DNA of 44,982 bases from a virus. Shown here one piece after another: positions 2,812-36,926 of the stretch; the stretch's first letter is position 1, and the number at the start of each line of letters is the position of its first letter. Both the position numbers and the translations under genes were made by a program. The DNA lies in the IMG/VR virus record IMGVR_UViG_3300045988_064885, positions 1 to 44,982 of that record; one strand, 5' to 3'. The notes beneath the pieces were generated by a model. The model made no database searches, was not told the origin of the DNA, and worked only from the letters and a program-made list of their open reading frames with translations.

Positions 2812-3015
2812 CTTTTGGGGCAGTACCCGCGCTAAATAATAAAAAATAAATTAAAAAAATACACGTTTCGTTGAATTTTTGAGTAATTTTTTTTGGTAGG
2901 TTCTTCTGGGAAAAATTGAAAGCGTGCGGTGGCCGAGACCCCAAAAATTGCCTAGATTTTAATTTTTTTATGACCTTGCTAGTGATACAGGTAATGAAAG
3001 GAGGCTGATTGATAA

Positions 3016-3546
3016 GTGAAAATTACAGATGATTTGAAAACGGCAACGGCCTCGCAGTCAAACCTGGCAAAAGCACTTGGACTCTCGCGCCAACGTGTTT
3101 CACAACTGCTCCAAGAAGGGGTTTTAGCTACCGATGAAAAGAATAATATTCTGGTTATCAAATCCGTTATCAATTATGTCAAATATAAGGGGCAATCCTC
3201 TGCTGAAGAGGAAAGTAGTTCCGATGATGCGATATTTGAGGTTGAAAAGGCTAAAAATGAACGCGCAAAACGCAAGATCGCCGAGTTGAAACTAGCCAAA
3301 ATGAACGGCGAGGTGTACTCAGCAGATACTGTAGAACAGGTTATGACAGAAATGCTTGTTAATTTGCGTACACAATTGTTAGGATTGCCAACTAAATTGG
3401 CACCACAGCTACAAAATATAACAAAAGAAGAAGCATATAACCTGTTAACACAAGAAATAGAGGATAAATTGTCCGAATTAAGTGAATATACGCCATCATT
3501 ATTCATGGATAGCGATGAGTTAGACGATGATAAAGCGCCAAATTAG
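3016..3546 (+). CDS. terS: Terminase small subunit (lambda Nu1-like N-terminal HTH)
   Basis: The N-terminal segment SQSNLAKALGLSRQRVSQLLQEGV...VIKSVINYVKY resembles the Nu1 wHTH. The gene is directly upstream of a GpA-type TerL. It starts at GTG after AAAGGAGG. Confidence 0.65.
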   Translation: MKITDDLKTATASQSNLAKALGLSRQRVSQLLQEGVLATDEKNNILVIKSVINYVKYKGQSSAEEESSSDDAIFEVEKAKNERAKRKIAELKLAKMNGEVYSADTVEQVMTEMLVNLRTQLLGLPTKLAPQLQNITKEEAYNLLTQEIEDKLSELSEYTPSLFMDSDELDDDKAPN

Positions 3547-3556
3547 GCGCTTTTTT
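3534..3556 (+). terminator. Small hairpin plus T6 overlapping the terS stop (possible attenuator between terS and terL)
   Basis: AGCGCC-aaatta-GGCGCT followed by TTTTTT. The 6-bp stem is short. Confidence 0.3.
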
Positions 3557-3580
3557 AATGCAAAAAAAGGAGGTGATAGC

Positions 3581-6500
3581 ATGAAAACGGCAAAAGAATT
3601 GTGGCAATATGTTTCTAAAACGGGCCTGAAACCATTACCAAAAACGAGTGTTAGCCAATGGGCTGACGATTATCGCATGCTATCACAAGGCCTTTCTGCT
3701 GAACCAGGGCGTTGGAAAACGAGTAGAGCACCATATCAAAAAGATATTATGGATGCTTTCACGCAACCTGGTATCAATAGGGTAGTGGTTAAGTCAGCAT
3801 CGCAGGTCGGGAAGGCTCTTGATGTAGAAACACCAATTATGACAACTACAGGATGGAAACGCATGGGCGACTTAACCATTAATGATCAAGTTTTTGATGA
3901 AAATGGTAATCCTGTTCGAGTCTTAGCAGTTAGTGAAGTGTGGAATAACAGACCTTGTTATGAAATTCGCTTTTCAGACGGAGCAGTTATTATCGCTGAT
4001 GAAAACCATGAGTGGTGCGTAGATACTGATAAAAAGCAAGGCATAATTATTGATACGCATACCATTAGTCAAACATATAAAAGTGGTAATCGTAATACAT
4101 ATGCTATTCAGATTGCTAAGGCGTTAGATTTCCGTAGTAATGTTCGATTACTTGTGGACCCATATACATTAGGGGCTTGGCTAGGCGATGGGAATAGTAT
4201 GTCTGCTCAGATTACAACTCATATAAAGGATGTTGCGATTATCAAGAAGATTGAGGAAAACGGAGTTCGTGTAAATATCCGCCAAAAATCTACCAATGTT
4301 TTAAATACACAACTTGAACCGCTAGAGCTTGACGAAAATATTTGTCGTCGAGGCCATGATATGCGTGTCACCGGCAGAAATAGTGTTGGAAGATGTGCAG
4401 AATGTGCACGTCAAAGTGCTTTAAAATCCAAATGGAAGGGTGTTAAAGATATTAAAGTAGACCCAGTTATAAAACATTGGGATACGATGCGGAATAAGTT
4501 AGTATCTCTTGGTGTACTTGGTAATAAACATATACCAGTATCGTACTTGGAGGCATCAGTAGATGACAGATGGGCTCTTTTGCAAGGCCTAATGGATACT
4601 GATGGTTTCTGCTCAACTAATGGTATTTGTGAAATAACGCAAAAAAACAAACATTTAGCAAATGATATATTCGACTTAGTGACCTCGTTAGGATTGAAAC
4701 CTACTATACATACGAAATGTGCAGTGGCTACAAATGGAAAAGCAGGGAATACTAGCACAGTTTATCGGATTACATTTACAGCATATGCAGATTCTCCTGT
4801 ATTCGCTTTGAAACGTAAACAGGACAGATTGATTAGTAGATCTATTGCTACACGTAAGAGTGAATCAAAACGTCGTAGGATTATTTCTGTTAAACGTGTA
4901 GAAAATCGCGAAACAGTGTGTATCGAAGTCGATAGTCCAACACATTTATTCCTAGCTGGCCGTAATCTTATTCCTACTCATAACTCAGACATAATGAATA
5001 ATGTGCTAGGGCGATACGCTCATCTTGACCCATGTGCGGTTATGATGATTCAACCGACTATCGAATTGGCTCAAGATTATTCAAAATCTCGTATTTCTCC
5101 AATGATCCGTGATACAAAAGTACTATCACAGGTATTCTATGAAACGAAATCTGAAGACGGTGCCAAAACAAGAGATGGTAAGAACACAATCTTATCTAAG
5201 TTATTCCCTGGTGGTCGTCTTATTATGTGTGGGGCGAACAGTCCGGCAGGATTGGCATCACGTCCTGTGCGTGTGCTACTTGCGGACGAAGTAGACCGAT
5301 TCCCAGATAGTGCCGGTACAGAAGGTGACCCAGTAGACCTTGCTGCCAAACGTATGACAACATTCTGGAATAGAGTTATGGGGCTATTCTCCACGCCAAC
5401 TAATGAAGGTAGCTCACGAATCGATGTAGAGTATCAAACAGGTACGCAAGAAGAGTGGCAACATGAGTGTCCTAATTGTGGTGAGTATCATTTGATACGA
5501 CATACTGAGATGGAATGTGAGACAGAGGAACATAAGGACACTAAAGGCCGGAAGATTGTAGTAGTTAGTGATGTGAAATGGCGGTGTCCAGATTGCGGAT
5601 CTACATTCTCTGAAGACGAAATGCGGAAAGTCCCTCAAAAGTACATATCGAAAAACCCAGCTGCGTTGCATAATGGCATACGCAGTTTTTTTGTGAATGG
5701 ATTCACGTCTCCGTGGCTCACATGGAATGACATAATGAGGGAATGGCTAGAGGCAAAAGGTGACCCTACACGTGAAAAAGTAGTTATGAATACTCGTTTT
5801 GGTGAATCATATGCGCAACAAGGTGCATTCGAAGACTATCAACAATTCATTAGGCGCCGTGAGAAGTACGGCGCAGACCTTCCGGACGGTGTGTTACTGC
5901 TAACTGGTGCCGTCGATACACAAGACAACCGGTTAGAGTATGAAATCACCGGTTGGGGGTACGGTGAAGAATGTTGGGGGATCTGTAAGGGTGTTATCTT
6001 AGGAGAACCTGATAATAAAGCGACATGGGATGCACTTGATGCGGTACTTGATAAGGTGTACCGATTTAAGAACGGAACAGGGCTTAAAGTAGCACGTGCT
6101 TTCATTGACTCCGGCGGTCACTACACGTCAAAAGTATATGAATACTGTGAAAAGAACTTCAGCAAGCAACGATTTGCCATCAAAGGTACGGCCGGAACAC
6201 CTGGCATACCGTTAAATTATAAGATTGGTAAAGCATCTGGAAGCAAGATTCCACTTGTCATGCTAGGTGTAGACGATGGGAAACAACAGGTAATGAACCG
6301 ATTGGCCATCGATGAACCTGGCGATAAGTACTTTCATTTCCCTTTGGATGAAGAATTCCTAGGAACTAGAGGGTATGACGAGTTGTATTTCAAAGGGATC
6401 ATTTCGGAACACAAGAAGAAAGTAAAACGTAAGGGCGTTATCCATGAAATATGGGAACCTACTGCAGGGGTTCGTAATGAACCTTTGGACTTACGTGTAT

Positions 6501-6655
6501 ATAACCTAGCGTGTATGAACTCAATACATCCTGATTGGGATAGATTGGCGGAAGTAGTTAAAGGTGGAGGCCATTCCACTACAGCAGTAACTACTCAACG
6601 AAAGAAACCAATGCGGAAACGTGTTCGCAGAGCTAGTAAAGCAGCAGATATTTAG
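3581..6655 (+). CDS. terL: Terminase large subunit, lambda GpA family, interrupted by an intein
   Basis: ATG 3581 follows AAAGGAGG. The N-terminal segment WADDYRMLSQGLSAEPGRWKTSRAPYQKDIMDAF is GpA-like. The P-loop KSASQVGK|S is split by a 390-aa insert. The C-terminal nuclease-region size and context fit a TerL. Confidence 0.9.
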   Translation: MKTAKELWQYVSKTGLKPLPKTSVSQWADDYRMLSQGLSAEPGRWKTSRAPYQKDIMDAFTQPGINRVVVKSASQVGKALDVETPIMTTTGWKRMGDLTINDQVFDENGNPVRVLAVSEVWNNRPCYEIRFSDGAVIIADENHEWCVDTDKKQGIIIDTHTISQTYKSGNRNTYAIQIAKALDFRSNVRLLVDPYTLGAWLGDGNSMSAQITTHIKDVAIIKKIEENGVRVNIRQKSTNVLNTQLEPLELDENICRRGHDMRVTGRNSVGRCAECARQSALKSKWKGVKDIKVDPVIKHWDTMRNKLVSLGVLGNKHIPVSYLEASVDDRWALLQGLMDTDGFCSTNGICEITQKNKHLANDIFDLVTSLGLKPTIHTKCAVATNGKAGNTSTVYRITFTAYADSPVFALKRKQDRLISRSIATRKSESKRRRIISVKRVENRETVCIEVDSPTHLFLAGRNLIPTHNSDIMNNVLGRYAHLDPCAVMMIQPTIELAQDYSKSRISPMIRDTKVLSQVFYETKSEDGAKTRDGKNTILSKLFPGGRLIMCGANSPAGLASRPVRVLLADEVDRFPDSAGTEGDPVDLAAKRMTTFWNRVMGLFSTPTNEGSSRIDVEYQTGTQEEWQHECPNCGEYHLIRHTEMECETEEHKDTKGRKIVVVSDVKWRCPDCGSTFSEDEMRKVPQKYISKNPAALHNGIRSFFVNGFTSPWLTWNDIMREWLEAKGDPTREKVVMNTRFGESYAQQGAFEDYQQFIRRREKYGADLPDGVLLLTGAVDTQDNRLEYEITGWGYGEECWGICKGVILGEPDNKATWDALDAVLDKVYRFKNGTGLKVARAFIDSGGHYTSKVYEYCEKNFSKQRFAIKGTAGTPGIPLNYKIGKASGSKIPLVMLGVDDGKQQVMNRLAIDEPGDKYFHFPLDEEFLGTRGYDELYFKGIISEHKKKVKRKGVIHEIWEPTAGVRNEPLDLRVYNLACMNSIHPDWDRLAEVVKGGGHSTTAVTTQRKKPMRKRVRRASKAADI
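3815..4984 (+). mobile_element. Intein (390 aa) with a LAGLIDADG homing-endonuclease domain; class-3-like (Ala1, Trp-Cys-Thr motif)
   Basis: It starts ALDVETPIMTTTGWKRMGDL (block A, with Ala instead of Cys/Ser). Block B is ADENHEW. LAGLIDADG-like motifs are LGAWLGDGN and LLQGLMDTDGF. Block F is VCIEVDSPTHLFLAG. Block G is LIPTHN, followed by Ser at +1. Removing the insert restores GKS. Confidence 0.8.
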
Positions 6656-19951: not shown

Positions 19952-20263
19952 ATGCCAGCAACGTATGAAATTAAACCAGTTACGGACAATAGGATATCGC
20001 TAGCACCTGAAAGTGAAGTTGCTGAGATTTTGCAGAATGTGCAAACGATTATTTCTACTGTTCGTGGTAGTGTGCCACTAGATAGGGAGTTTGGTATTGA
20101 TGGCCGTATTATTGATATGCCTATCCATCAAGCTCAAGCGCATCTATCTAATGACATATTCCAACAAATTAAACGGTACGAACCGCGTGCCAAAATTAGT
20201 GATATATCGTTTACCGCCACACATAATGGGGCGTTGATTCCGAAAGTAATGGTGACTATATGA
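19952..20263 (+). CDS. Baseplate wedge protein (gpW / T4 gp25-like)
   Basis: 103 aa, directly upstream of the gpJ-like gene. It contains RGSVPLDREFG and the IKRYEPR motif typical of the GPW_gp25 family. Confidence 0.75.
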   Translation: MPATYEIKPVTDNRISLAPESEVAEILQNVQTIISTVRGSVPLDREFGIDGRIIDMPIHQAQAHLSNDIFQQIKRYEPRAKISDISFTATHNGALIPKVMVTI

Positions 20264-21381
20264 GATTATCTGATTTACCTAATGTTGAATTCTTTAACAC
20301 AGATAAAGAACACGTTCAACAAAAGGTATTTGATATTTACACAACAATAACAGGGCGAACCTTGGGAGAGGGCGACCCTGTTACTTTATTTTTAAATGTA
20401 ATTTCGGAAATTATTATCCGATTATTAAACGATGCCAATTATGCAGCGAAACAAAATCTGTTAGCATATGCAGAAGGTGATAATTTAGATCACGTTGGAG
20501 CTGTTCCTGCTGCCGTTGAGCGATTGCGGGCAACAAAAGCAACTACGACTATCCAAGCTACCTTGTCAGCAGTGCGTACGAACTCTGTTATTATTCCAAA
20601 AGGTACAAAAATATCCACAGCAGGTGGCGAATATTTTGTTACTGTTGAGAATTTGGTAATTCTACCAGGTCAACTCAATGGGTCCGTAAAAGCAGAAGCA
20701 CAACGTACAGGCGCACAAGGTAATGGGTTTAAACCAGGTGAAATAAGTACAATTATTGACCCTATAGCATTTGTGGATACGATGAGTAACACCACATTGT
20801 CTGAAGGTGGCTCTGATACAGAGGATGACGAAGCCTATCGTGAACGTATTCATGAGTCTCCTGAATCATTCTCCGTGGCAGGCCCTGAAGGTGCCTATGA
20901 GTATTTTACAAAATCTGCATCACACCTCGTGGCCGATGTAGGTGTATCCTCTCCACATCCTGGGGAAGTTAATATCTATCCATTACTATCTGGCGGTGGT
21001 ATTCCAGGGCAAGAATTGCTTAAGACTATTACGGATTATTTGTCTGATAAGAAACGTAGACCGTTAACAGATAAGCTAACTGTATTAGCCCCTACTACTA
21101 CGCAATATAACATCGATGCTAAGTACTACATTGAAAAAGGTGCCGATGCCACAGTGGTAAAAGCTAAGGCAGATAAAGCCGTCAATGACTATGTAATTTG
21201 GCAAAAATCTAAATTAGGCCGTGATATAGTGCCTAGTCGATTGGTGCAAATGCTCATGGATGTATCTGGAATTAAACGCGTTGAAGTGACTGCCCCTGTA
21301 TTTACTCCGATTGCAGAACAAAGTGGAGTAGCAGTAGCTAATACAATCGCTGTGGTATTAGCAGGAAGTGAGGAAGAATGA
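20260..21381 (+). CDS. Baseplate J-like protein
   Basis: 373 aa, in the W-J-I order and overlapping its neighbours. Confidence 0.8.
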   Translation: MRLSDLPNVEFFNTDKEHVQQKVFDIYTTITGRTLGEGDPVTLFLNVISEIIIRLLNDANYAAKQNLLAYAEGDNLDHVGAVPAAVERLRATKATTTIQATLSAVRTNSVIIPKGTKISTAGGEYFVTVENLVILPGQLNGSVKAEAQRTGAQGNGFKPGEISTIIDPIAFVDTMSNTTLSEGGSDTEDDEAYRERIHESPESFSVAGPEGAYEYFTKSASHLVADVGVSSPHPGEVNIYPLLSGGGIPGQELLKTITDYLSDKKRRPLTDKLTVLAPTTTQYNIDAKYYIEKGADATVVKAKADKAVNDYVIWQKSKLGRDIVPSRLVQMLMDVSGIKRVEVTAPVFTPIAEQSGVAVANTIAVVLAGSEEE

Positions 21382-22037
21382 TACTTGATAGTAAGTATAC
21401 TAGTGCGGATCATCTTCCGTCCTCAATCGATAAGGAACCAATTAAGCCCCTTGCTAAAACTTGGGACGATATGCTGGCCGAATTTATGAATACATCTACC
21501 CTACTATTATGGTCGTCTATTGATACTGAATCAGAGAGTGTAATTGATCATTTAGCATATCAATTACACGTGGATGACTATGACAGCGGGCTACCGATAG
21601 AGACTAAACGCGAAATGGTGAAGAATTCAATTGATATTCACCGCCATAAAGGCACGCCATATGCTGTTGAAAAAGCCGTACAGACTATATATTCAGATTC
21701 GAAAATAGCAGAATGGTTCGATTATGGAGGTAAGCCTTATTATTTTAAGGTTACGCTCATTACAGCGCCATTAACCGGCAAATCGGATATTGTTAAGCTT
21801 ATACGCGCTATCAATGCCGCCAAGAATGTACGGTCCTGGTTAGATGGTATTGAATTCATTCGACGAATTAATTTCAATAAGTATTTCGCTGGGTGGTGCG
21901 GTGTGTCTAAGAAAGTGAATATCAAGTGTGATTTTACGAATGCATGGCGCATTAATTTGAATACCCATGTAACGTCTTACACAGTTGAATCAAAGAAAAC
22001 GAAGATTAATGTAGCGCTAGATAATAGCGTTAGATAG
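21378..22037 (+). CDS. Baseplate/tail protein I-like
   Basis: 219 aa. It contains the HRHKGTPYAVEKAV motif typical of P2 gpI-type proteins and lies upstream of the fibre gene. Confidence 0.65.
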   Translation: MILDSKYTSADHLPSSIDKEPIKPLAKTWDDMLAEFMNTSTLLLWSSIDTESESVIDHLAYQLHVDDYDSGLPIETKREMVKNSIDIHRHKGTPYAVEKAVQTIYSDSKIAEWFDYGGKPYYFKVTLITAPLTGKSDIVKLIRAINAAKNVRSWLDGIEFIRRINFNKYFAGWCGVSKKVNIKCDFTNAWRINLNTHVTSYTVESKKTKINVALDNSVR

Positions 22038-22046
22038 GAGGAATAT

Positions 22047-22943
22047 ATGGCAGAATGGTCAAATGCAACCATGACTGATGTTGGTGCTGCTTTGCAAGCA
22101 AAGGTAAATGCGGGCAAGACTAAACTGACATTCACGAAAATCAAAGTCGGTAGTGGTGTTAATGCAACGAATCCATTGGCATTAACTGATGTAATCTCCT
22201 CTAAATGGGAGACTACTAATTTTGTAGTTAAGCTAGAAGGTAAAATTGTAAGCGTTGATACATTTATAACTAATACTGGCATACATGAAGCTTTTCGAAT
22301 GTCTGAAATTGGGTTATTTGCGCAAGATCCTGATAAGGGCGAAATATTGTATGCATACCTTACGGACCCTGAACCGGACAGAATGCCGGCAGAAAGTGGC
22401 TCAGTAGTTGTATCTCAAGAATTAACCATCGGAATGGTATTTAGTAATACAGGAAATGTATCGCTAACTGTTAATATAGGTGCGTTGATAACACGTGAGC
22501 AGTTAACAGAAGCAGTTAAACAACATAACACAGATATTTCATCTCACCCTCCTATTACAGACCAAATTAAAGCAATCCTTGGTAGTTCTAACTGGAAAGA
22601 CTCTCCGGCGAGTACGCTTGTTACAATTAAAAGCTTATTAGGGCAAGGCGCTATCGTGGCATCTAAGCTCGACGCTAATGCGGGGTTTGTTAAATTTGCA
22701 AATGGTTTCACTATCCAGTGGGGAATAGGAGGGCAGGATAACGTGACCAAAAGTGAAGTAAGATTCCCAATCAAATTCACAACGCTATTTATGGCCAACG
22801 CTATTGATGCATACTGGTCAGGTTCTGACACGCCTAGGTATTTCGCTAACTCCGTGTCGGAGAGCAACTCCACTAAAGCCGTATTTTCGGCAAGCGATAG
22901 ATACGCTGCTTCTTATTACTGGTTTGCTCTAGGGATTATCTAG
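22047..22943 (+). CDS. Tail fibre protein, currently expressing C-terminal variant A
   Basis: The N-terminal tail-collar-like segment is MTDVGAALQAKVNAGKTKLTFTKIKVGSG. The C-terminal receptor-binding-type domain starts at FTIQWG and ends YYWFALGII. Confidence 0.8.
   Translation: MAEWSNATMTDVGAALQAKVNAGKTKLTFTKIKVGSGVNATNPLALTDVISSKWETTNFVVKLEGKIVSVDTFITNTGIHEAFRMSEIGLFAQDPDKGEILYAYLTDPEPDRMPAESGSVVVSQELTIGMVFSNTGNVSLTVNIGALITREQLTEAVKQHNTDISSHPPITDQIKAILGSSNWKDSPASTLVTIKSLLGQGAIVASKLDANAGFVKFANGFTIQWGIGGQDNVTKSEVRFPIKFTTLFMANAIDAYWSGSDTPRYFANSVSESNSTKAVFSASDRYAASYYWFALGII
22712..22727 (+). repeat. Recombination site inside the fibre gene (TATCCAGTGGGGAATA)
   Basis: 22715-22727 is the exact reverse complement of 23403-23415. 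22712-22722 is the exact reverse complement of 23164-23174. Confidence 0.8.
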
Positions 22944-23173
22944 TTACCTATGATAATGAACATAATCTGATCACCAACGCCTTGCTGTCCTCTATAGTCA
23001 CTATCCTTATATGTTAGCTGATTTCTAGAAGTCGATAAAATGATTTCAGAAAATGAATAATCACCGTTATATCTTGCGGTAGAAACGGCGATAGTCTTGT
23101 TACTGAACTCTACCGGGTAGCGCACAGTCCAAGGCTTAGGTTGATTATAGGCGTTAAATAATACCCACTGGAT
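22940..23173 (-). other. Silent inverted tail-fibre C-terminal cassette B (77 codons, no start codon or RBS)
   Basis: The minus strand reads IQWVLFNAYNQPKPWTVRYPVEFSNKTIAVSTARYNGDYSFSEIILSTSRNQLTYKDSDYRGQQGVGDQIMFIIIGN*. This matches the architecture of the expressed C-terminus (IQW...F/YP..F...W/F.IG). It ends tail-to-tail with the fibre gene in a shared CTAG. Confidence 0.75.
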
Positions 23174-23174
23174 A
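23164..23174 (-). repeat. Inverted recombination site B (TATCCAGTGGG on the minus strand)
   Basis: An 11-bp exact inverted match to 22712-22722, in the same codon phase (ATC CAG TGG). Confidence 0.75.
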
Positions 23175-23414
23175 TTAATTCTTCCCTATGGCCATCCAAA
23201 CGAAACTGCCTGTGTCCGCTCTGTTGGTTAAGAATCGGATGGTGGTTCTATTAGACTGAGAGAACCCACTGTTCCAAGTAATAAAGCATTGTGCACCAGA
23301 AGTTTCAACACTGACAGAGTCATCGGTAGCTAAGGCTATTAGTACGGTGCTGCTAATCGGTAGGGAAATATCCTTATAGTACTTATTAGTATCAAACCAA
23401 GTTATTCCCCACTG
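23175..23414 (-). other. Silent inverted tail-fibre C-terminal cassette C (79 codons, no start codon or RBS)
   Basis: The minus strand reads QWGITWFDTNKYYKDISLPISSTVLIALATDDSVSVETSGAQCFITWNSGFSQSNRTTIRFLTNRADTGSFVWMAIGKN*. It ends with the WxAIG-type motif typical of fibre tips. Confidence 0.75.
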
Positions 23415-23415
23415 G
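23403..23415 (-). repeat. Inverted recombination site C (CCAGTGGGGAATA on the minus strand)
   Basis: A 13-bp exact inverted match to 22715-22727, in the same codon phase (CAG TGG GGA ATA). It lies 5 nt from the recombinase stop codon. Confidence 0.8.
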
Positions 23416-23419
23416 GGAG

Positions 23420-24271
23420 TTACTTTAATAATTCTATGGACTTGCGTAGCTCACGAATGGTCTTATGCGTGTATACCCTAGTAGTGATATCGCCTTGTTT
23501 ATGCCCTAACAAAGAGCGTAAAGCATTGGGCGGGGCAACCGCATCAAGCAGACTGGCGAATGTGTGCCGGGTATCATGGATAGTATGCTTACAGTTAAGC
23601 TGCTTCAAGACATCCTGGAAATGCTTACGAAATGTTGTGTAGCTGATAGGAAATAGATAATTGTCTGTAGAATTGTATACCTGCTCAATTAATGGCGCGA
23701 TGCGGTGATGTATAGGAATAATACGACCTTCACCGGCTTTAGTTTTGGCGTGTTTTACAATAAGGTATGATGATCGTCTATTGATATCTTGCCTGCGTAA
23801 ATTAAGTAGCTCACCGATACGTAGTCCGGTGTAAAGCAGTATTAAAATCATGCGAGAGTAAGAAGTATCTATTGCCCATAATTTGTTGATTTGTTGGCGA
23901 GTGAATACTCTCCTTTTAATCGTCGGCTTATTGGGCCCTAGATTTAGATGCTGGGCATAATTAGTGATAGGGTAATCTTTAATGATTGCGTAATTAAATA
24001 ATTGATTAAGTAGTGTACGGACTTTCTTACAAGATGAGTAGGAAAGTTCTTTTACGTGCATGGAATTAATCACGTTCTGAAGGTGCTGAAAATGAATATC
24101 CGTGATAGACATATCCGATATGTTGGATATGTGTTTAAAAGCGATGTGATAAGACTTAACAGCACTATTAGTAATAGACTGAGAGTGAATAGGCAGCCAC
24201 TCGTTAAATAGTTGCCTTAATGTAATGGTATTGCGTTGTCTACGTTTTAATATAATAGCGTAACGGCGCAT
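23420..24271 (-). CDS. Small tyrosine recombinase (XerC/D / Rci-like); putative tail-fibre invertase
   Basis: 283 aa. The Arg-I region is LLYTGLRIGELLNLRRQDI, box II is HDTRHTFASLL, and LLGH...RVYTH carries the catalytic Tyr. It is the only minus-strand gene in the late operon and abuts the inverted cassettes. Confidence 0.85.
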   Translation of the reverse strand: MRRYAIILKRRQRNTITLRQLFNEWLPIHSQSITNSAVKSYHIAFKHISNISDMSITDIHFQHLQNVINSMHVKELSYSSCKKVRTLLNQLFNYAIIKDYPITNYAQHLNLGPNKPTIKRRVFTRQQINKLWAIDTSYSRMILILLYTGLRIGELLNLRRQDINRRSSYLIVKHAKTKAGEGRIIPIHHRIAPLIEQVYNSTDNYLFPISYTTFRKHFQDVLKQLNCKHTIHDTRHTFASLLDAVAPPNALRSLLGHKQGDITTRVYTHKTIRELRKSIELLK

Positions 24272-24297
24272 AATTTCACCTCCGAAAGGATACGACT

Positions 24298-24687
24298 ATG
24301 AATCAATATGTATTTATTTTAAATGAAAAAGGGGAACGAATTACATCCCTGTGTGATAACACGTTGAGCCGTGAAACTATTATGGCGCAAGCTGAACACG
24401 ATTACCCAAATGCGCAATATGTGTATTCTGCAGATGGTGACGCAATGCTTGATGAATTTATGAGCGGTAAAGCGTATGTAGACGGAAAATTCGTTGCGCC
24501 TGATCCGTATGTTCCTACAAAGGAAGATAAAATTAACGCGATTAAATCTGAATACGAGCCGCGCTTCAAATCCTTAGAAGAGGCTCAGCGCAGATTGTTA
24601 TTAATGGGAAAACCTACTACGGCTATTAGCGCACAATATATTAAATTAAATGACGAAATGGTAACACGTATTAAGGAGGTGCGATAA
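24298..24687 (+). CDS. Hypothetical protein; possible tail-fibre assembly/chaperone-like protein
   Basis: A 129-aa ORF downstream of the fibre locus. The functional call rests on position and a loose C-terminal resemblance only. Confidence 0.4.
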   Translation: MNQYVFILNEKGERITSLCDNTLSRETIMAQAEHDYPNAQYVYSADGDAMLDEFMSGKAYVDGKFVAPDPYVPTKEDKINAIKSEYEPRFKSLEEAQRRLLLMGKPTTAISAQYIKLNDEMVTRIKEVR

Positions 24688-24688
24688 T

Positions 24689-24853
24689 ATGCCTAAATTT
24701 ATTGGAGACAGCAAAGTACCAGTTATGGAATTCTGTGAGTATTGTTGGGAAGTGCTTAATGAAGATGGTACTTGCCCTACACCAGGGTGTATCCATAATG
24801 ATCTAATGGACGAGGAGCACAAAGATGAAACTACCGGTTCTACACAACCTTGA
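24689..24853 (+). CDS. Small Cys4 zinc-ribbon-like protein (54 aa), unknown function
   Basis: ATG follows AAGGAGG at 7-nt spacing. Cys pairs occur in CEYC and CPTPGC. The ORF is absent from the supplied track because it is under 60 aa. Confidence 0.45.
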   Translation: MPKFIGDSKVPVMEFCEYCWEVLNEDGTCPTPGCIHNDLMDEEHKDETTGSTQP

Positions 24854-25163
24854 TGCAATCAAAGGGGAAGTGATTTCTCTAAATATTGGGTATAACAATC
24901 TTGTTGAAGAGGCAAATCTCTTTGCTTGTGTTCGTAAGTGTCCATACGACGAAGAATATAAAGTGAAGTTTAGTATCGACGTCTCTACTGATGCTTTGAA
25001 AGACGATGAAGCTTGTAAAATCACTCTTTCTTTAGATACAAATATGCTCGAAGCTGGTAAATACCAATGGGATTTGTTCTTATGGAACGGCGACCGGCCT
25101 ATTAAATGCCTTGTTAAGGGTCAAGTTAATGTAATCGAAGGTATCAGTAATAGGGGGAAATGA
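24825..25163 (+). CDS. Hypothetical virion-associated protein
   Basis: A 112-aa ORF overlapping the preceding small ORF and coupled to the collagen-like gene. Confidence 0.5.
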   Translation: MKLPVLHNLDAIKGEVISLNIGYNNLVEEANLFACVRKCPYDEEYKVKFSIDVSTDALKDDEACKITLSLDTNMLEAGKYQWDLFLWNGDRPIKCLVKGQVNVIEGISNRGK

Positions 25164-25164
25164 T

Positions 25165-26457
25165 ATGAGCGAAGAAAACGTGTATTTGAAACCTTCTCCT
25201 GTTGATAGCATCCGCATCAAAGACAGTGTTGAAAATATTAAAGTCAAAGACAATATGCAGCTTGTTAAGTTACAAGGCCCTAAAGGCGACCCTGGTCCTA
25301 AAGGTGAACCTGGTAAAGATGGAAAGCCTTTTACTTATGATATGTTCACCGCTGAGCAATTAGCATCACTTAAAGGTCCTAAAGGCGACCCAGGCCCTCC
25401 TGGACCTCCAGGTTCTGGTGGTGGCACTGGTGGAGGAAATGTCGATTTATCGGCTTACGCTACTAAAAAAGAGTTAGATAATTATTTATCTAGAACAGAC
25501 GCCAATAACCATTATGCTCAAAAGGGCTGGGCGTCTCAAACGTTTGCTTATAAAAATGATTTAGGTAGTTTTATTAGAAAAAACGAGATTGGGCAATATG
25601 CGTTAACGCCTGGCGATGCGGCTAGCCGTTATGTTAACAAAATAGAGGGGCGATCCTTTGTTAAGTATTCCAATTTAAATGACTATGTAAAGAAATCTGA
25701 AATAAGTCAGTATATATCAAGGGTACCTGCAGAAACTGCATATCGTACCTTGTTAAGCGGAAATATATGGTGTGATAGTGCTAACGTTGATGATGTACTT
25801 ACTGCTTTAATTGGCAATATGGGTAAGCCATTTCCTCGGACTGAATTTAAGCCATTGACTATTCCAAGCGTAACCAAAGGTCAACAGGTGGTAACAGTAA
25901 CAGGTGAACCTCATTACAGTGTTAAGGTAGTTGGTAACGACACACCTTTCACGCTAGACAGTACTGGAGCTTGCACTATTACAATTCCACCTCTAGGCGA
26001 AGATGATATAAAACTCACTTATCACAATTTCACAGGTGCAAAAGTTGCAGAATACAAAATTGCTGGTGTTCAAACTGATGCAGTTGCTGATGAAGAATAT
26101 ACCGAAAATGGCATTGTATACAAACGCTATGGGGATATCTTGAAAATGAATATTTCAAATAATACAGTTAGAGGCAATTTCAAAGATAACCCTAAGAATT
26201 GGAATGTTACGAAAAAGGTAATTTATGCCAATAGACCAGCAACGCTTAATTTAGGCGATAACTGGAACAGCTACGGCCCTTATTATATTGAAACGCCTGA
26301 AAATATAACATTTAAAGGATTTAACAACCTTATGCGGCTAACAGTCACTACAGCAACACAGGGGGCACAAACGATGGCCTTTAATTTGAATACCATTGAA
26401 TGGGATGCGGCTAACAGTCACTACAGCAACACAGGGGACTACAACACTGGATTATAA
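25165..26457 (+). CDS. Collagen-like repeat protein; probable second tail fibre / side fibre
   Basis: Gly-X-Y tracts are QGPKGDPGPKGEPGKDGKP and KGPKGDPGPPGPPGSGGG, followed by a roughly 330-aa globular region. Confidence 0.75.
   Translation: MSEENVYLKPSPVDSIRIKDSVENIKVKDNMQLVKLQGPKGDPGPKGEPGKDGKPFTYDMFTAEQLASLKGPKGDPGPPGPPGSGGGTGGGNVDLSAYATKKELDNYLSRTDANNHYAQKGWASQTFAYKNDLGSFIRKNEIGQYALTPGDAASRYVNKIEGRSFVKYSNLNDYVKKSEISQYISRVPAETAYRTLLSGNIWCDSANVDDVLTALIGNMGKPFPRTEFKPLTIPSVTKGQQVVTVTGEPHYSVKVVGNDTPFTLDSTGACTITIPPLGEDDIKLTYHNFTGAKVAEYKIAGVQTDAVADEEYTENGIVYKRYGDILKMNISNNTVRGNFKDNPKNWNVTKKVIYANRPATLNLGDNWNSYGPYYIETPENITFKGFNNLMRLTVTTATQGAQTMAFNLNTIEWDAANSHYSNTGDYNTGL
26332..26364 (+). repeat. 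33-bp perfect direct repeat, copy 1 (ATGCGGCTAACAGTCACTACAGCAACACAGGGG)
   Basis: Identical to 26405-26437. The offset is 73 bp, so the two copies are read in different frames of the same ORF. Confidence 0.9.
26405..26437 (+). repeat. 33-bp perfect direct repeat, copy 2
   Basis: Identical to 26332-26364. Confidence 0.9.
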
Positions 26458-26656
26458 TTAACCAAACCACAAGGGGGAACACATGCAAGAATTAACTGAT
26501 TTTACGGAAACAGAGTAAGGGGGTGCATATCTCATCTGGACATGGCAGTTTCAATTAGATGATATTTTAACTACGCTTACGATCGTAGGTGTAGTTGCGG
26601 GGGCGGGGTACAGACTACTGATTATCCCGCTACTCGAAAAACTGGACCTTCAAAGG

Positions 26657-26872
26657 ATGCAAGATAATTTGATGTTTCAGGAAAAAATGGGCGTGCTTAC
26701 CGATACGTTGAAAGACTTAAAAGATGAAATTAAGCTATCACGTGAACAACGCACAAAAGCCTATACTGAACACGTGAAGCTAACATCTCGTGTCGATGGC
26801 ATCGAAGCCCGTGTTGATGATATTAAGGAGGAGTTACATGAACATACCACCAAATCTCATCAATACAGTTAA
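26657..26872 (+). CDS. XhlA-like coiled-coil lysis-associated protein (putative)
   Basis: The coiled-coil segment LKDLKDEIKLSREQRTKAYTEHVKLTSRVDGIEARVDDIKEEL sits directly upstream of the holin and amidase, as in PBSX xhlA-xhlB-xlyA. The in-frame upstream region encodes a TM-like helix but has no canonical start. Confidence 0.45.
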   Translation: MQDNLMFQEKMGVLTDTLKDLKDEIKLSREQRTKAYTEHVKLTSRVDGIEARVDDIKEELHEHTTKSHQYS

Positions 26873-27170
26873 AAAATCATACCAATCTGTAAGGGTGGCT
26901 AACATCCGCCCTACAGGCGTATTCGCTACACGGGCGCTAGTATTTATTATGCTAGTGCCTATTTTATTGGTAATAACTCAGTATGTTATGTCATTTGTTA
27001 GCGGGTACGTATCTGACGAGGCGAACAAGCTGATTAATGTAGGGCTTAATATCATAGATCATATATTCGTCCCTAGCGTATTAATGGCTGTTGTAGGCTT
27101 CTTAGGGCTTTGGCTAGACAAGAACAATAATGGCATTCCAGATAAATTAGAAGAGGAGGATAAACGATGA
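26838..27170 (+). CDS. Holin (two predicted TM helices, charged C-terminus)
   Basis: ATG 26838 follows AAGGAGGAG. TM-like segments are ALVFIMLVPILLVITQYVMSFV and FVPSVLMAVVGFLGLWL. The C-terminus is DKLEEEDKR. It overlaps the amidase start. Confidence 0.6.
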   Translation: MNIPPNLINTVKKSYQSVRVANIRPTGVFATRALVFIMLVPILLVITQYVMSFVSGYVSDEANKLINVGLNIIDHIFVPSVLMAVVGFLGLWLDKNNNGIPDKLEEEDKR

Positions 27171-27685
27171 AAGTTTTTATTAATCCCGGACATGATATTA
27201 ATTTAGATAGTGGCGCGGTTAACCCTGTATATGGTACTCGTGAATGTGATGTGGCCCGTGATGCGGGCAAAATGTTAGCTCGCTATTTGGAAACAGCAGG
27301 ATGTGAAGTCCGTACTCTACAAGATGATGATTTAGGTCTAGTATGTTCTGAATCTGATTCTTGGGGCGCAGATATCTTCGTATCGCTTCATTGTAATGCG
27401 TTTAACACGGAAGCTCGAGGAACTGAAACACTGTATAAGTCCTTTAATGGTCAACGATTGGCCAATGATATTCAAAGCCAAATCATCCGAAGCATTAATA
27501 CAGTTGATCGTGGTGTTAAAAAACGCGATGACCTTTGGGTACTAAATGGTACGGATGCAACTGCAGTATTGGTTGAAATGGCATTCATTGATAACGAAGA
27601 TGACCATGCTATGTTGACTAATGATTTAGCCACTATCGTTCGTGCCATTGCTAGGGGAATTACTGACTACGCAGGAGGGGTATAA
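27167..27685 (+). CDS. Endolysin: N-acetylmuramoyl-L-alanine amidase (Amidase_3 type)
   Basis: The series INPGHD...DSGAV...E...FVSLHCNA...GTE...VLVEMAFIDNEDD is characteristic of Amidase_3 zinc amidases. Confidence 0.85.
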   Translation: MKVFINPGHDINLDSGAVNPVYGTRECDVARDAGKMLARYLETAGCEVRTLQDDDLGLVCSESDSWGADIFVSLHCNAFNTEARGTETLYKSFNGQRLANDIQSQIIRSINTVDRGVKKRDDLWVLNGTDATAVLVEMAFIDNEDDHAMLTNDLATIVRAIARGITDYAGGV

Positions 27686-28086
27686 TGTATGACAAAATCA
27701 AAGTTTTACTTACTAACCCTACTTACCGCTATTTTATTATCGGTGGTATTGGGGTCCTCATCTGCCTTTGCCTCGGATATATCTTCTATCAGCCAAGCGG
27801 AACCGACTATCAGCGTACCCTTAACACAGTGGAACGAATTGAAAGCCAACAACGGGAAAGCCTTGAGCATAATCGAAGCGTCCAACGTTCCATTGACAGA
27901 AGCGCAGACTATAGCCGTGAAGCAAAAGAACGAGTTGACCGAAGCACACAATACAATCAACAAATTGGAGAGCGAATTGATGCAAGCCAAGCTTCAATCA
28001 ATGAAGCAAGAGGTTACCTTGAACGAAATGCAGAACTCTTTGACCGAATTGAAAGGGCAAATAGAGAACGACAAGAAAACCATTAA
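27685..28086 (+). CDS. i-spanin-like protein (N-terminal TM plus coiled coil), frame A
   Basis: ATG 27685 lies 6 nt after GGAGG. The TM segment is YRYFIIGGIGVLICLCLGYIFY, followed by an R/E/Q-rich helical region. It comes immediately after the endolysin. Confidence 0.5.
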   Translation: MYDKIKVLLTNPTYRYFIIGGIGVLICLCLGYIFYQPSGTDYQRTLNTVERIESQQRESLEHNRSVQRSIDRSADYSREAKERVDRSTQYNQQIGERIDASQASINEARGYLERNAELFDRIERANRERQENH

Positions 28087-28162
28087 ACGCTTGCGGATGC
28101 AACGCAACTTTTCTCAAATGTTAGGTGGCGGTGCAATTATAGGGGTAGCTTTTAAACATTAA
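27689..28162 (+). CDS. Secreted coiled-coil protein with a C-terminal hydrophobic tail, frame B (alternative or additional spanin-like product)
   Basis: ATG 27689 lies 10 nt after the same GGAGG. The signal-peptide-like segment is LLTLLTAILLSVVLGSSSAFA|SD. A coiled coil follows, and the C-terminus is MLGGGAIIGVAFKH. There is no lipobox Cys. Confidence 0.4.
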   Translation: MTKSKFYLLTLLTAILLSVVLGSSSAFASDISSISQAEPTISVPLTQWNELKANNGKALSIIEASNVPLTEAQTIAVKQKNELTEAHNTINKLESELMQAKLQSMKQEVTLNEMQNSLTELKGQIENDKKTIKRLRMQRNFSQMLGGGAIIGVAFKH

Positions 28163-28276
28163 GGAAGTGATCCATACATCTCCATAGCGTGTAATGGTGG
28201 ATACACGCAACTATCAACTATTAGTTGTCAGTTGTCAGTTGTAAAGTTCTTATTTATAACTTAATAGCATAATAAA

Positions 28277-30428: not shown

Positions 30429-30472
30429 TGACATCATAAAGTCTTGCGTGGTTTGACATCATTTTGACATCA
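30429..30472 (+). repeat. Three direct TGACATCA repeats (putative integrase arm-type sites, right arm of attP)
   Basis: Copies at 30429-30436, 30454-30461 and 30465-30472. The last two are 11 bp apart, and the last one overlaps the int stop codon. Confidence 0.5.
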
Positions 30473-31543
30473 GAATATTTTAGAAATACGTTCTACGATG
30501 TCATCTTCCATTTTAGGTGTCACATGTGAGTAAGTATCCATCGTTTCTTGGAATGAAGCATGCCCTAGACGTTCCTGTATGGCTTTCATATTGGCCCCAT
30601 TTTCAATGAGAAGGGTGGCGTGGGTATGTCTAGTACCGTGCATGGTAAAAGAAGGCTTACCAATTAAATTGGCGTATTTCTTACATAGTTTGCTGACTTC
30701 ATCGGGACAACGAGGAGCGCCTTTTATACCAGGGAATACAAGGTTATTATTAATCCAGTTCAAGGTTTTAATTCTGCGTTTGTCTATGACTGTTTTATGC
30801 TTCATGAGTTCCTGGAGTGTTTCCGTATCAATGGCAATTATCCGTTTTGAGGATGTGGTTTTAGTTGTATTGGATATAACTGCAGTAGATCCGATTTTGA
30901 GGGCAGTTTGTGAAATGGATATAGTTGATTTCTTGAAATCGATATCCGACCATCGTAAGCCTAATAATTCAGACCGACGCATACCTGTTGCAAATGCTAA
31001 TTTAAATAGAGCATGATGTTCTGTATTTGATATATTAGATAAGAAATCTTTTACTTCATCTGCAGATAACGTTACCATATGACGGACTTTAACCTGTTTT
31101 GGTCGGTCTATGTTTTTCATATAGTTTTTAGGGATGATGTCATCTTTTACCGCCTGCTCTAATATGGAGCCTAGAATTGTCATGGTGTAGGATATAGTCC
31201 TTGATGATAATCCATCCATTGATTCAAAAACATACCGTAATGTATTAGGTTTAATTTCAGCTAACTTTACACAGCCGATTTTATCTCTGATATAGCGATT
31301 GATAATGCCTGTATAGCTTTGATATGTGGCAGGGGTTATAGTCTTTTCCTTTAGTTGTAACCATATATTAATCCAGGTGTTTAATGAAATTGTATCATCG
31401 AAATTAGCACATGCTTGATTTGTATTTACGTATTTCTCCATGGCTTCTATGGCAGCTTTCTTGGTAGTGCCATAAAAGTATTTACGCTTACCGTTTATCA
31501 TCTTTGATACCTGGTAGCGCCCATCTGCTCGTTTTTTTGGCAT
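30470..31543 (-). CDS. int: Tyrosine integrase (phage integrase family)
   Basis: 357 aa. The N-terminal Arm/SAM-like region begins RADGRYQV. Other motifs are FATGMRRSELLGLRWSDI, HGTRHTHATLL and LGHASFQETMDTYSH. It lies adjacent to the tRNA-fragment attP. Confidence 0.9.
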   Translation of the reverse strand: MPKKRADGRYQVSKMINGKRKYFYGTTKKAAIEAMEKYVNTNQACANFDDTISLNTWINIWLQLKEKTITPATYQSYTGIINRYIRDKIGCVKLAEIKPNTLRYVFESMDGLSSRTISYTMTILGSILEQAVKDDIIPKNYMKNIDRPKQVKVRHMVTLSADEVKDFLSNISNTEHHALFKLAFATGMRRSELLGLRWSDIDFKKSTISISQTALKIGSTAVISNTTKTTSSKRIIAIDTETLQELMKHKTVIDKRRIKTLNWINNNLVFPGIKGAPRCPDEVSKLCKKYANLIGKPSFTMHGTRHTHATLLIENGANMKAIQERLGHASFQETMDTYSHVTPKMEDDIVERISKIF

Positions 31544-35402: not shown

Positions 35403-36926
35403 ATGAACAAAACAGTATTAATGACAGCAACAATCGCATCTTTAGCAGTAAACGTAATGGCTGCTAATAACAATACTTTGGTAGGCACGGACAATAACAT
35501 TACAGCTACTTCTCATAGCTCTTTGGTATCTGGGTACCAAAATACAATAAACGCTAACAACGCACTAGCATTTGGTACTAACAATACCGTTACTGGTGAA
35601 AACGGATTCGCAGGTGGCAATAATGCTACTGCTGCAGGACGTAATAGCTTTGCATTCGGTTCTCATGCCGAAAGTTTGGTAGAGTACACAGTAGCCATCG
35701 GTAATCAAGCTCGTGTGTCTAGTTATGACAGTGTAGCTATCGGCAACGGCGCCTTCGTATCCGGTGAATCTAGTGTGGCTCTAGGTCGTACCAACAACGT
35801 GACTGGCGAAAACTCCGTAGCAATCGGTGCTAACAATGGCACAGTAGCAGGCGGACAAAGTGCCGTTGTAGGGTACAACAATAAAATCGGTGCTGACAAA
35901 GAGCAGTTAGTATTTGGTTCTAACTCCGAATCTAGTGGCCAAGGAGCCCTAGTATTTGGTACACACTCCAAAGCCGTAGCAATGGACGCCGTTGCATTCG
36001 GTAACAACACGATTGCGGACAAATCGAATGCAGTTGCCATCGGTACAAATTCTGTTACCGATGATGCGGTAGGCGTTGAAGGCATTACCATTAATGGCAC
36101 GAAACACGTATTTGCAGGGGAGCAACCTGCTAGCGTAGTAAGTTTTGGCGCTAAAGCCCGTGCAGGTGCAGGCGGGGTAACTCAATACAACCGCCAACTC
36201 ACGAATGTGAGCGCTGGTCAAATCTCCGCTGATTCATTAGACGCTGTGAACGGCTCCCAGTTGTTCGCTGCAATTGATGAAATCGAAACAAACGCTAAAC
36301 AAATTAACAAAAACAAGCAAAACATTAAAGATGTGGCAATCGGTTTGAACATGTTAGGCGATGTGGTGAATGATCATGAACAAGCTATTGCAGGTAATAC
36401 TACTGCAATCACCAACAACACCAACCGCATCAATGGTAATACAAATGCGATTAATTCCCTTGGCCAAAACGTAGCTACTAATACAGCTGATATCCGTGTA
36501 CTTGAAAAGGTAGCGGATAACCACGAAGGGCGCATTACTGATTTGGAACATCGTTCTACCAGCATGGCTAATGACATTAACAACAAAGTCAACAATCTTG
36601 GCCAACGTGTTAACAAGTTAGGCGCAAGTTCCGCAGCACTAGCAGGTCTGCACCCCCTTGAATATAACAAGAATGACAAAGGTAGTTTTGCTATTAGCTA
36701 TGGTCGTTACCGTAACGCTAACGCAATTGCACTTGGCGCATTCTATAGCCCTAACGAAAAAGTACGCTTAGGATTCGGCATCACTTTAGGTGGTGAAACT
36801 CAATTCAATATTAATGCTGCATTCCGCACTGGTAGAGGCTCTGAATATGAACCACAAGCTAAGAATGGTGAGCTCGAACAACTTCGCCAGGAAGTAGAAA
36901 CACTTAAAGCGTTAGTTAATAAATAA
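35403..36926 (+). CDS. Trimeric autotransporter adhesin (YadA/Hag-like): signal peptide, head repeats, stalk, YadA-type membrane anchor and a C-terminal coiled-coil extension
   Basis: The signal peptide is MNKTVLMTATIASLAVNVMA. There are repeated S(V/A)A(I/F)G..A.....SVA(I/L)G head motifs. The neck is SLDAVNGSQLFA. The anchor is ALAGLHPLEYNKNDKGSFAISYGRYRNANAIALGAFYSPNEKVRLGFGITLGGETQFNINAAFR. A further ~30 aa follows: ELEQLRQEVETLKALVNK. Confidence 0.85.
   Translation: MNKTVLMTATIASLAVNVMAANNNTLVGTDNNITATSHSSLVSGYQNTINANNALAFGTNNTVTGENGFAGGNNATAAGRNSFAFGSHAESLVEYTVAIGNQARVSSYDSVAIGNGAFVSGESSVALGRTNNVTGENSVAIGANNGTVAGGQSAVVGYNNKIGADKEQLVFGSNSESSGQGALVFGTHSKAVAMDAVAFGNNTIADKSNAVAIGTNSVTDDAVGVEGITINGTKHVFAGEQPASVVSFGAKARAGAGGVTQYNRQLTNVSAGQISADSLDAVNGSQLFAAIDEIETNAKQINKNKQNIKDVAIGLNMLGDVVNDHEQAIAGNTTAITNNTNRINGNTNAINSLGQNVATNTADIRVLEKVADNHEGRITDLEHRSTSMANDINNKVNNLGQRVNKLGASSAALAGLHPLEYNKNDKGSFAISYGRYRNANAIALGAFYSPNEKVRLGFGITLGGETQFNINAAFRTGRGSEYEPQAKNGELEQLRQEVETLKALVNK

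Follow-up and report, generated by a model that had tools for sequence, protein, structure and literature searches.

The DNA analysed here, referred to below as the window, is the whole of IMG/VR virus record IMGVR_UViG_3300045988_064885 (44,982 nucleotides (nt)), and the subject of this report is a locus within it at which a tail-fibre gene, two silent alternative versions of its 3' end and a gene for a tyrosine recombinase follow one another. We consider it very probable that this locus is a phage-encoded multiple-inversion system (shufflon) with which a temperate phage of Veillonella changes the receptor-binding tip of the tail fibre on its baseplate. A preliminary description of the same DNA had proposed a tip-only switch of this kind, and its claims are taken up with the results that bear on them. 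The features of the locus, together with the separate phage integrase, are listed here.

22047–22943, plus strand: tail-fibre gene, 298 amino acids (aa), expressed, currently carrying tip A (family a)
22047–22721, plus strand: constant part of the fibre, 225 codons, through W225
22710–22727, plus strand: site S1, ACTATCCAGTGGGGAATA, inside the fibre gene, with its core at 22715–22722
22713–22943, plus strand: coding segment of tip A, IQWGIGG...FALGII*, the C-terminal receptor-binding domain in the expressed slot
23173..22940, minus strand: silent cassette B (family c), IQWVLFNAYNQ...MFIIIGN*
23159–23174, minus strand: site S2, TATCCAGTGGGTATTA
23414..23175, minus strand: silent cassette C (family b), QWGITWFDTNK...FVWMAIGKN*
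23403–23420, minus strand: site S3, ACTCCCCAGTGGGGAATA, adjoining the recombinase gene
23420–24271, minus strand: tyrosine recombinase of 283 aa lacking an arm-binding domain, the putative shufflon invertase
30470–31543: phage integrase, 357 aa, separate from the recombinase

The fibre gene was matched by PHROG tail-fibre families and contained two Pfam domains, Phage_tail_fib at aa 6–144 and Gp53-like_C at aa 216–296 (E 1e-8), the second of which coincided exactly with the swappable part; a sequence search of the PDB with the fibre returned no match. Its constant part closes on I223-Q224-W225 and is joined in frame to the tip, as the preliminary description had stated, such that the expressed C-terminus reads FTIQWGIGGQ...YYWFALGII* in full frame. 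Searched alone, tip A matched Gp53-like_C end to end and above the Pfam cut-off (E 3.1e-10), as did cassette B over its full length (E 1.2e-5; 26.2 bits with a cut-off of 24.9). Judged by sequence, all three tips belong to this domain family, with cassette C matching below the cut-off.

No plus-strand open reading frame (ORF) of at least 40 aa was found in 22944–23419, which agrees with the earlier claim that the 476 bp between fibre and recombinase hold no plus-strand gene. Translation confirmed that cassettes B and C are laid out like the expressed C-terminus, and that cassette B and tip A lie tail to tail, with overlapping stop codons in a palindromic CTAG at 22940–22943, both of which had been proposed. 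Neither silent frame, read on the minus strand, begins with a start codon; the claim that both frames lack one held for their beginnings and failed for an internal GTG in cassette B, which yields a mechanical ORF of 61 aa.

Each tip begins at a copy of the 8-mer CCAGTGGG, the core. This sequence occurred three times on both strands of the window, each time at the start of a tip, compared to a shuffle expectation of 0.34 (0 of 100 shuffles reached three copies), and all three copies lay in the phase (ATC/CCC) CAG TGG, which encodes Q-W. A repeat search recovered inverted repeats between S1 and S3 (22710–22727 and 23403–23420; 18 nt, 89%) and between S1 and S2 (22712–22727 and 23159–23174; 16 nt, 88%). 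These results bear out the claims that the cassettes start at inverted copies of a sequence in the fibre gene and that all copies share one codon phase. The distal site had also been placed 5 nt from the recombinase stop codon, which was not accurate: the exact 13-nt repeat ends 4 nt away, and the extended repeat overlaps the stop. The left arm of a site includes the stop codon of the upstream gene, namely that of the recombinase at S3 and that of the preceding cassette at S2 (cassette C, which has its stop in the left flank TTAATAT). The recombinase-proximal site forms a near-perfect dyad, ACTCCCCA-G-TGGGGAnT (TGGGGAaT in S3 of the window), and this dyad reaches 10 of 12 positions per arm when cassette b lies alongside.

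The recombinase matched the Pfam family Phage_integrase (PF00589, E 6.7e-22) together with a SAM-like core-binding domain, whereas NCBIfam returned only Xer or integron-integrase models below threshold; its best PDB matches were the XerC-like 4a8e and XerA 5hxy. Candidate catalytic residues were R151, K176/178, H232-x-x-R235, H257 and Y267, with 16 residues following Y267 at the C-terminus, in keeping with the earlier description of a 283-aa tyrosine recombinase bearing R...HxxR...Y motifs. The identity between the recombinase and the phage integrase was 24%, and the two are distinct, as had been noted. Because residue 14 of the recombinase aligns to residue 50 of the phage's own integrase, where the alignment starts, the recombinase lacks an arm-binding N-terminus. 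A tblastn search of GenBank phage records with the recombinase found only integrases, at 26–34% identity. The gene contexts inspected among these relatives, in phiHugo, phiRgPS_6 and Idris, were ordinary lysogeny modules without fibre cassettes.

We retrieved 88 related loci (80 viral and 8 genomic) with the recombinase as query, so that its presence in them is given. The full-length gene adjoined a cassette array in 87 of these, and one (L088) gave a partial match only. A BLAST comparison of five pieces of the window (constant part, tip A, cassettes B and C, and recombinase) with the 80 viral loci found these pieces in many orders and orientations. Of the loci with a recombinase at least 85% identical to that of the window, 66 were then parsed by core motif along with the window itself, for a total of 67. 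Each of these contained 2, 3 or 4 sites, of which the first was always in the plus orientation and inside the fibre gene, and the last always in the minus orientation and abutting the recombinase stop codon; internal sites occurred in either orientation. In all, 28 distinct arrangements were observed, the commonest being that of the window (a> c< b<, 10 loci). Grouping at 60% identity gave 7 tip families, with 9–30% identity between families; the three receptor-binding variants described earlier are thus the three tips of the window, and the family as a whole has at least seven types. The expressed slot was occupied by family a in 35 loci, b in 13, c in 6, d in 6, e in 6 and f in 1. Both cassettes that are silent in the window were therefore found expressed elsewhere: cassette C (family b) was in the expressed slot in those 13 related loci, and cassette B (family c) was fused to the constant part in L008, L015, L050, L081, L012 and L020.

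Closely related backbones differed by exact inversions. The flanks of the locus in the complete chromosome of V. parvula UTDB1-3 (L083) and in a V. parvula metagenome-assembled genome (L084) were collinear and 99–99.8% identical, and the two differed by a 516-bp block that was exactly inverted (516/516) between two cores. A set of four cassettes (e, b, c, a) was present in at least 6 permutations on backbones that were mostly at least 99% identical, with a few flank segments at 97–98%. A total of 196 of 201 cassettes were intact, and copies in silent positions had dN/dS values of 0.07–0.14, by which measure the silent cassettes are under purifying selection. The check that the preliminary description had suggested, a comparison of homologous prophages for alternative orientations, thus returned 28 arrangements and clean inversions ending in the core. 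Overall, the permutations, the six expressed families, the selection on silent cassettes, and the common domain and fold of the tips support a tip-only switch driven by multiple inversions, and comparison of these loci indicates that the Veillonella shufflon family is evidently active.

The flanks of the sites further narrowed the point of exchange. The 201 parsed sites had been found by a search for the 7-mer CCAGTGG, so these seven bases are invariant by construction; the base that follows was G in 98% of sites, and, relative to the core, T was present at −3 in 100% and A at −5 and +2 in 90%. Left flanks stayed with the position in the array and right flanks moved with the cassette. Across the 67 loci, including the window, the left flank of the first site, TGGTTTCACTAT, was kept whichever cassette came next, that of internal sites was a conserved TTAATAy, and that of the last site was TAAAGTAACTCC (pattern TAAA(G/A)TAACTCC), and a given cassette occurs behind each type of left flank. 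For this reason, the crossover would fall inside CCAGTGGG(G/T)A, or inside CCAGTGGG if family c is involved, an interval that fits the 6–8-bp overlap region typical of tyrosine recombinases. In 64 of 76 newly fetched viral-contig stretches, the 15-mer ACTCCCCAGTGGGGA and a recombinase homologue lay at most 40 nt apart, and the remaining 12 had no such homologue; this exact scan recovered the same Veillonella family plus those 12 stretches, and no distant relatives.

Contig ends were concentrated at the locus. Of the 80 viral contigs, 24 ended inside the shufflon, 11 of them at most 100 nt from the recombinase stop codon, whereas only 9 ended in the next 2.9 kb. This accumulation fits the presence of mixed orientations within samples.

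At least one viral contig is chimeric: L070 (IMGVR_UViG_3300007123_000146) folds back on itself via shared cassettes, and its two recombinase genes face opposite ways and come from different lineages. Here the shufflon has led the assembly to join two different phages.

The preliminary description had also suggested structure prediction of the tips. Models of tip A and cassette C were built with AlphaFold2 from an alignment of 70 diverse tips, and gave an all-beta domain for tip A (predicted local distance difference test score (pLDDT) 82.6) and the same strand order for cassette C (pLDDT 73.7). In Foldseek searches, the best PDB neighbours of both were the C-terminal part of the R2-type pyocin fibre (6ct8/6cl6; TMq 0.55 and 0.61, the latter for cassette C with 6ct8) and the receptor-binding domain of the cyanophage Pam1 tailspike (7eea); tip A also matched the R1 pyocin fibre C-terminal domain and H-type lectins. 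Tip A and cassette C therefore model as the same beta-sandwich, resembling the feet of R-pyocin fibres. The models are consistent with a glycan-binding fibre tip, short of proof.

Taken together, these observations suggest the following mechanism. A constant 5' part of 225 codons, ending in I-Q-W, is followed by an array of Gp53-like_C tips of ~75–80 codons (three in the window), each with the core CCAGTGGG before it in one common reading phase and none with its own promoter or start codon. The armless recombinase would synapse S1 with any oppositely oriented site and exchange strands inside the shared 8-bp core, with the 7-bp CCAGTGG at the centre of the dyad as the likely overlap, such that the intervening segment would invert and place a new tip in frame after W225. 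Inversions between internal sites would reshuffle the order of the cassettes. Virions of one prophage lineage would then carry differing tips, which presumably bind different Veillonella surface glycans or lipopolysaccharide. Within this scheme, the cleavage positions inside the core, the identity of the receptor and the timing and frequency of switching are inferred. The overlap CCAGTGG is palindromic but for its central base pair (CCA-G-TGG), and because the core is almost palindromic, control of orientation would rest on very little asymmetry.

Several observations weigh against this interpretation. The adjacent recombinase is named as the probable inversion catalyst on the basis of its linkage to the array, and among isolated phages the proteins closest to it (30–34% identity) are integrases of the ordinary kind, encoded in lysogeny modules. 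Cassette C matched Gp53-like_C over its full length at an E value of 0.012, below the Pfam cut-off, and the Foldseek E values of the tip models were weak (6e-3 and 0.3). The core encodes the conserved Q-W-G of the tip domain, and the DNA repeat could partly reflect conservation of these residues in the protein. Six contigs carried a recombinase identical to that of the window; the two places shown had the window's arrangement, and the others were reported to be similar. Because contigs with the identical recombinase gave only this arrangement, switching by the window's own copy is projected from the behaviour of the family.

These points lend themselves to other explanations. The inversions may be real and the work of a different enzyme, such as the phage integrase or a trans-acting invertase, host-encoded or co-resident, with the recombinase serving in dimer resolution or secondary integration. 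The integrase kinship of the recombinase among characterised phages favours this possibility, and trans-acting invertases such as Mpi are known in gut bacteria (discussed in PMC6109161). We nevertheless consider it improbable, given that the recombinase gene always abuts the array and contributes its stop codon to the last site, that the 15-mer site lies near a recombinase homologue in 64 of 76 stretches, that the recombinase lacks an arm-binding N-terminus of the integrase type, like the Rin invertase discussed below, and that a decayed relative in Acidaminococcus combines a truncated recombinase with a split fibre gene. That relative, L094 (positions 3000–4900; Acidaminococcus timonensis JAXYHE010000001, also a Negativicute), emerged from a profile search with the seven tip families, whose matches, this one Acidaminococcus protein apart, were for the most part silent Veillonella cassettes called as short ORFs. 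It contains three gp53-like tips with a CAGTGGG core, a fibre gene split into three ORFs and a tyrosine recombinase truncated to its N-terminal 173 aa, and from its sequence it is a decayed relative of the Veillonella system.

Alternatively, the window copy could be a frozen relic and the permutations elsewhere old events fixed in separate lineages, in line with the single arrangement of the contigs with an identical recombinase and with the fact that a> c< b< is the commonest arrangement (10 loci). This is highly improbable, since backbones that are 99–100% identical differ by inversions, which for that reason must be recent; moreover, the recombinase ORF and three cassettes of the window are intact, its sites match the family consensus, silent cassettes are under purifying selection and contig breaks pile up in the locus. 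Finally, many loci came from metagenome assemblies, and L070 is chimeric, such that the permutations might be assembly artefacts at short inverted repeats. We find this barely credible: the complete chromosome of an isolate (NZ_CP019721, L083) differs by an exact inversion, a repeat of 8–10 bp is far below assembler k-mer sizes and so would not give misjoins, and the cassettes stay in frame in every permutation.

A further role of the recombinase and core, beyond inversion, may lie in excision, capture and exchange of tip cassettes among phage genomes, in the manner of integrons or recombinase-mediated cassette exchange, an extension that we regard as rather unlikely but for which there are three hints. 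In the first, the 99% identical backbones of L012 and L015 differed by exactly 235 bp, the length of one cassette (family e) and one site, and the difference began and ended in cores arranged as direct repeats, CCCCACTGGG. Either a site-specific deletion or the capture of a cassette would account for it, and recombination between direct repeats does seem to occur over evolutionary time. In the window, the S1–S2 block (22712–23174, tip A plus cassette B) was identical to that of L025 and L001 (463/463), whereas the constant part was 87–89%, cassette C 89.5% and the recombinase 90–95% identical; the nearest mismatches, at 22711 and 23189, were 1–15 nt outside the sites. This pattern suggests that phage lineages may have traded whole modules, with the exchange at the sites or close to them. 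L039 shared only cassette B at 100%, and because one boundary there does not lie at a site, general recombination would also contribute. The third hint is the near-palindromic core (CCA-G-TGG), with its slight asymmetry for the control of orientation. A broader survey for identical cassettes next to diverged constant regions used ungapped identity, which is unreliable with indels, and only the comparison of the window with L001 and L025, made by gapped alignment, was used.

With its ~45 kb, the window appears to be the complete genome of a temperate Veillonella phage, in circularly permuted form. A recombinase at least 85% identical to its own was encoded by 129 IMG/VR viral contigs, and the sample identifiers of most of these follow a numbering that we link to Human Microbiome Project sets. 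Among Veillonella genomes, 8 contigs from V. parvula, V. dispar and Veillonella sp. matched at 85–90% identity, one being the complete UTDB1-3 chromosome of V. parvula (NZ_CP019721, L083). The genome comprised a replication module with a DnaC-like loader; a head module with a gpA-type terminase, lambda-type portal, ClpP protease and major capsid protein; a tail module with a gpD hub, baseplate, fibre and shufflon; small ORFs and then a collagen-like protein of 430 aa 3' of the shufflon; a lysis and lysogeny module with endolysin, antirepressor and integrase; and an early module with RecT, Bro/KilAC and related genes. Features outside the shufflon were as follows.

20260–21381, 5' of the fibre gene: Baseplate_J (Pfam)
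21378–22037, 5' of the fibre gene: Tail_P2_I (Pfam)
3527–6655, plus strand: large terminase, 1042 aa
25165–26457, plus strand, 3' of the shufflon: collagen-like protein, 430 aa
31558–32832, minus strand, immediately adjoining the integrase: protein of 424 aa with a histidine-kinase-like ATPase domain and DUF4325 (STAS-like)
35403–36926, plus strand, between the lysogeny module and the early genes: YadA-like trimeric autotransporter adhesin (head repeats, stalk, membrane anchor)

The large terminase contained LAGLIDADG_3 and Hom_end matches at about aa 344–418, upstream of the best of two stretches matched by GpA_ATPase (aa 487–700), after which comes the nuclease domain; the insert is probably an intein or a homing-endonuclease insertion. 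The collagen-like protein, which has G-X-Y repeats at aa ~35–95 and matches PHROG tail-fibre families via the repeat only, is probably a second fibre, and the small ORFs between it and the recombinase (24298–25163) had no match to a known family. The 424-aa protein could be a defence or accessory gene, and the phage-borne adhesin may be a lysogenic-conversion gene. Many related contigs of ~40 kb stop 3.1–3.9 kb past the recombinase start (about 27400–28200 of the window), right behind the lysis genes, and these are probably genome or prophage ends in a permutation unlike that of the window. Megablast of 20000–27000 against 50,697 GenBank phage records gave no match, and a promoter and terminator scan of 21800–25300 gave counts no higher than shuffles and was uninformative on transcription of the recombinase and late genes.

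Veillonella are abundant commensals of the mouth and gut and, to our knowledge, almost none of their phages have been characterised. The prophage family described here is common in human metagenomes, as indicated by the 129 viral contigs and by its presence in several genomes of V. parvula and V. dispar, and with one scaffold and at least seven interchangeable receptor-binding tips it offers a natural experiment in which to follow the host range of phages in a diderm Firmicute. A module of ~0.5–1 kb plus an 852-bp gene would provide a compact basis for engineering switchable or swappable fibre tips. The locus also carries a practical warning, in that it breaks metagenome assemblies and its silent cassettes are annotated as small hypothetical genes. 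To a specialist the system will be unsurprising, and its value lies in an unusually clear set of natural sequences, which hints that cassettes are lost, gained and exchanged at the sites.

Two classical families of inversion systems provide the background for comparison. In the R64/IncI shufflon, the recombinase Rci (~384 aa with a C-terminal extension) acts at sfx sites and switches the pilV tips of a type IV pilus adhesin. As in R64, the Veillonella array has a tyrosine recombinase gene beside it, multiple segments inverted one at a time or several together, of which some hold two tail-to-tail C-terminal cassettes, and a constant N-terminus joined to variable adhesin tips. In contrast, its target is a phage fibre (Phage_tail_fib, Gp53-like_C) behind baseplate genes rather than the pilV adhesin, its recombinase of 283 aa has no C-terminal extension (16 residues after Y267) and is set apart by length from Rci, and its recombinase-proximal site is nearly symmetric, whereas sfx has been described with one conserved arm. 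Neither NCBIfam nor a tblastn search of plasmids with the recombinase gave an Rci-type match; the plasmid search returned generic integrases, and the one Escherichia coli match examined lay on an IncY phage-plasmid and was not Rci. The earlier label of Rci-style therefore stands for multi-segment inversion, by group or singly, and not for the target or the C-terminal extension. Mu Gin, P1 Cin, e14 Pin and p15B Min are serine recombinases that work with Fis and an enhancer on segments that carry fibre-assembly chaperone genes, Min being a multi-segment system. They too switch tail-fibre C-termini by DNA inversion and thereby alter host range. Unlike them, the Veillonella locus gave only tyrosine-recombinase domains (PF00589) and no serine recombinase, and its 476 bp hold two tip cassettes of ~230 bp each and no chaperone genes. 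Thus the Veillonella system is not a member of either family; it works like Rci/sfx and serves the same purpose as Gin, Cin, Pin and Min.

The closest likeness is to the Rin shufflon of Bifidobacterium breve and B. longum prophages, described by Mavrich et al. (2018) as the first phage-encoded tyrosine-family invertase, in which Rc, the Rv cassettes and rin follow one another and 11-bp rix sites are used (PMC6109161). A Rin system was also reported in Eggerthella lenta prophages in 2022, with cassettes that are H-type lectin domains (PMC8778435), and the modelled tip A likewise matches H-type lectins. Both arrangements join a constant 5' part of a receptor-binding protein gene to short, promoterless and divergent C-terminal cassettes (6–30% identity among Rv, 9–30% in Veillonella), each preceded by a short repeat (~11 bp in Rin; in the window, the core occurs at the three cassette starts only), and both end in a gene for a Xer-like tyrosine recombinase that has no arm-binding domain and is separate from the phage integrase. 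Inversions between related prophages are seen in both, with endpoints in the sites here (L083 and L084). They differ in host, which is a diderm Firmicute (Negativicutes) rather than an Actinobacterium; in the fibre, which belongs to a P2-type baseplate (Baseplate_J, Tail_P2_I and an N-terminal Phage_tail_fib) and bears gp53-like tips, unlike the TP901-1-like siphovirus receptor-binding protein of Rin; and in the site, the rix sequence being TTCCCTAACCC and the Veillonella core CCAGTGGG, nearly symmetric and within a dyad. No Bifidobacterium record was among the phage-record matches to the recombinase at E ≤ 1e-10, which is weak negative evidence on kinship with Rin.

A 2026 preprint describes an active tail-fibre shufflon in BV01-like phages of Phocaeicola vulgatus, with 10-bp directional motifs and all configurations present in read data (PMC13596623). 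BV01 similarly has a recombinase-flanked multi-cassette array over the 3' end of a carbohydrate-binding tail-fibre gene, and differs in host phylum and in its motif, TGGGAGAACT; megablast of 20000–27000 against GenBank phage records showed no sequence relationship between the Veillonella locus and BV01-like phages. A survey of programmed inversions has further reported enrichment of tail-fibre genes, 'phage tail protein I' and tyrosine recombinases (PMC9881135). The view that a tip-only tyrosine switch in a phage fibre is unusual was therefore overstated, as the same architecture occurs in Bifidobacterium and Eggerthella (PMC6109161, PMC8778435) and BV01 has a tail-fibre shufflon (PMC13596623). 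Full-text literature searches found no paper describing the Veillonella system. The Veillonella locus is a well-populated, previously undescribed case of a kind first published in 2018, found in Negativicutes and on the fibre of a P2-type baseplate. It adds a third independent host clade for receptor-binding protein shufflons that use tyrosine invertases, which suggests a strategy in general use among human-associated temperate phages.

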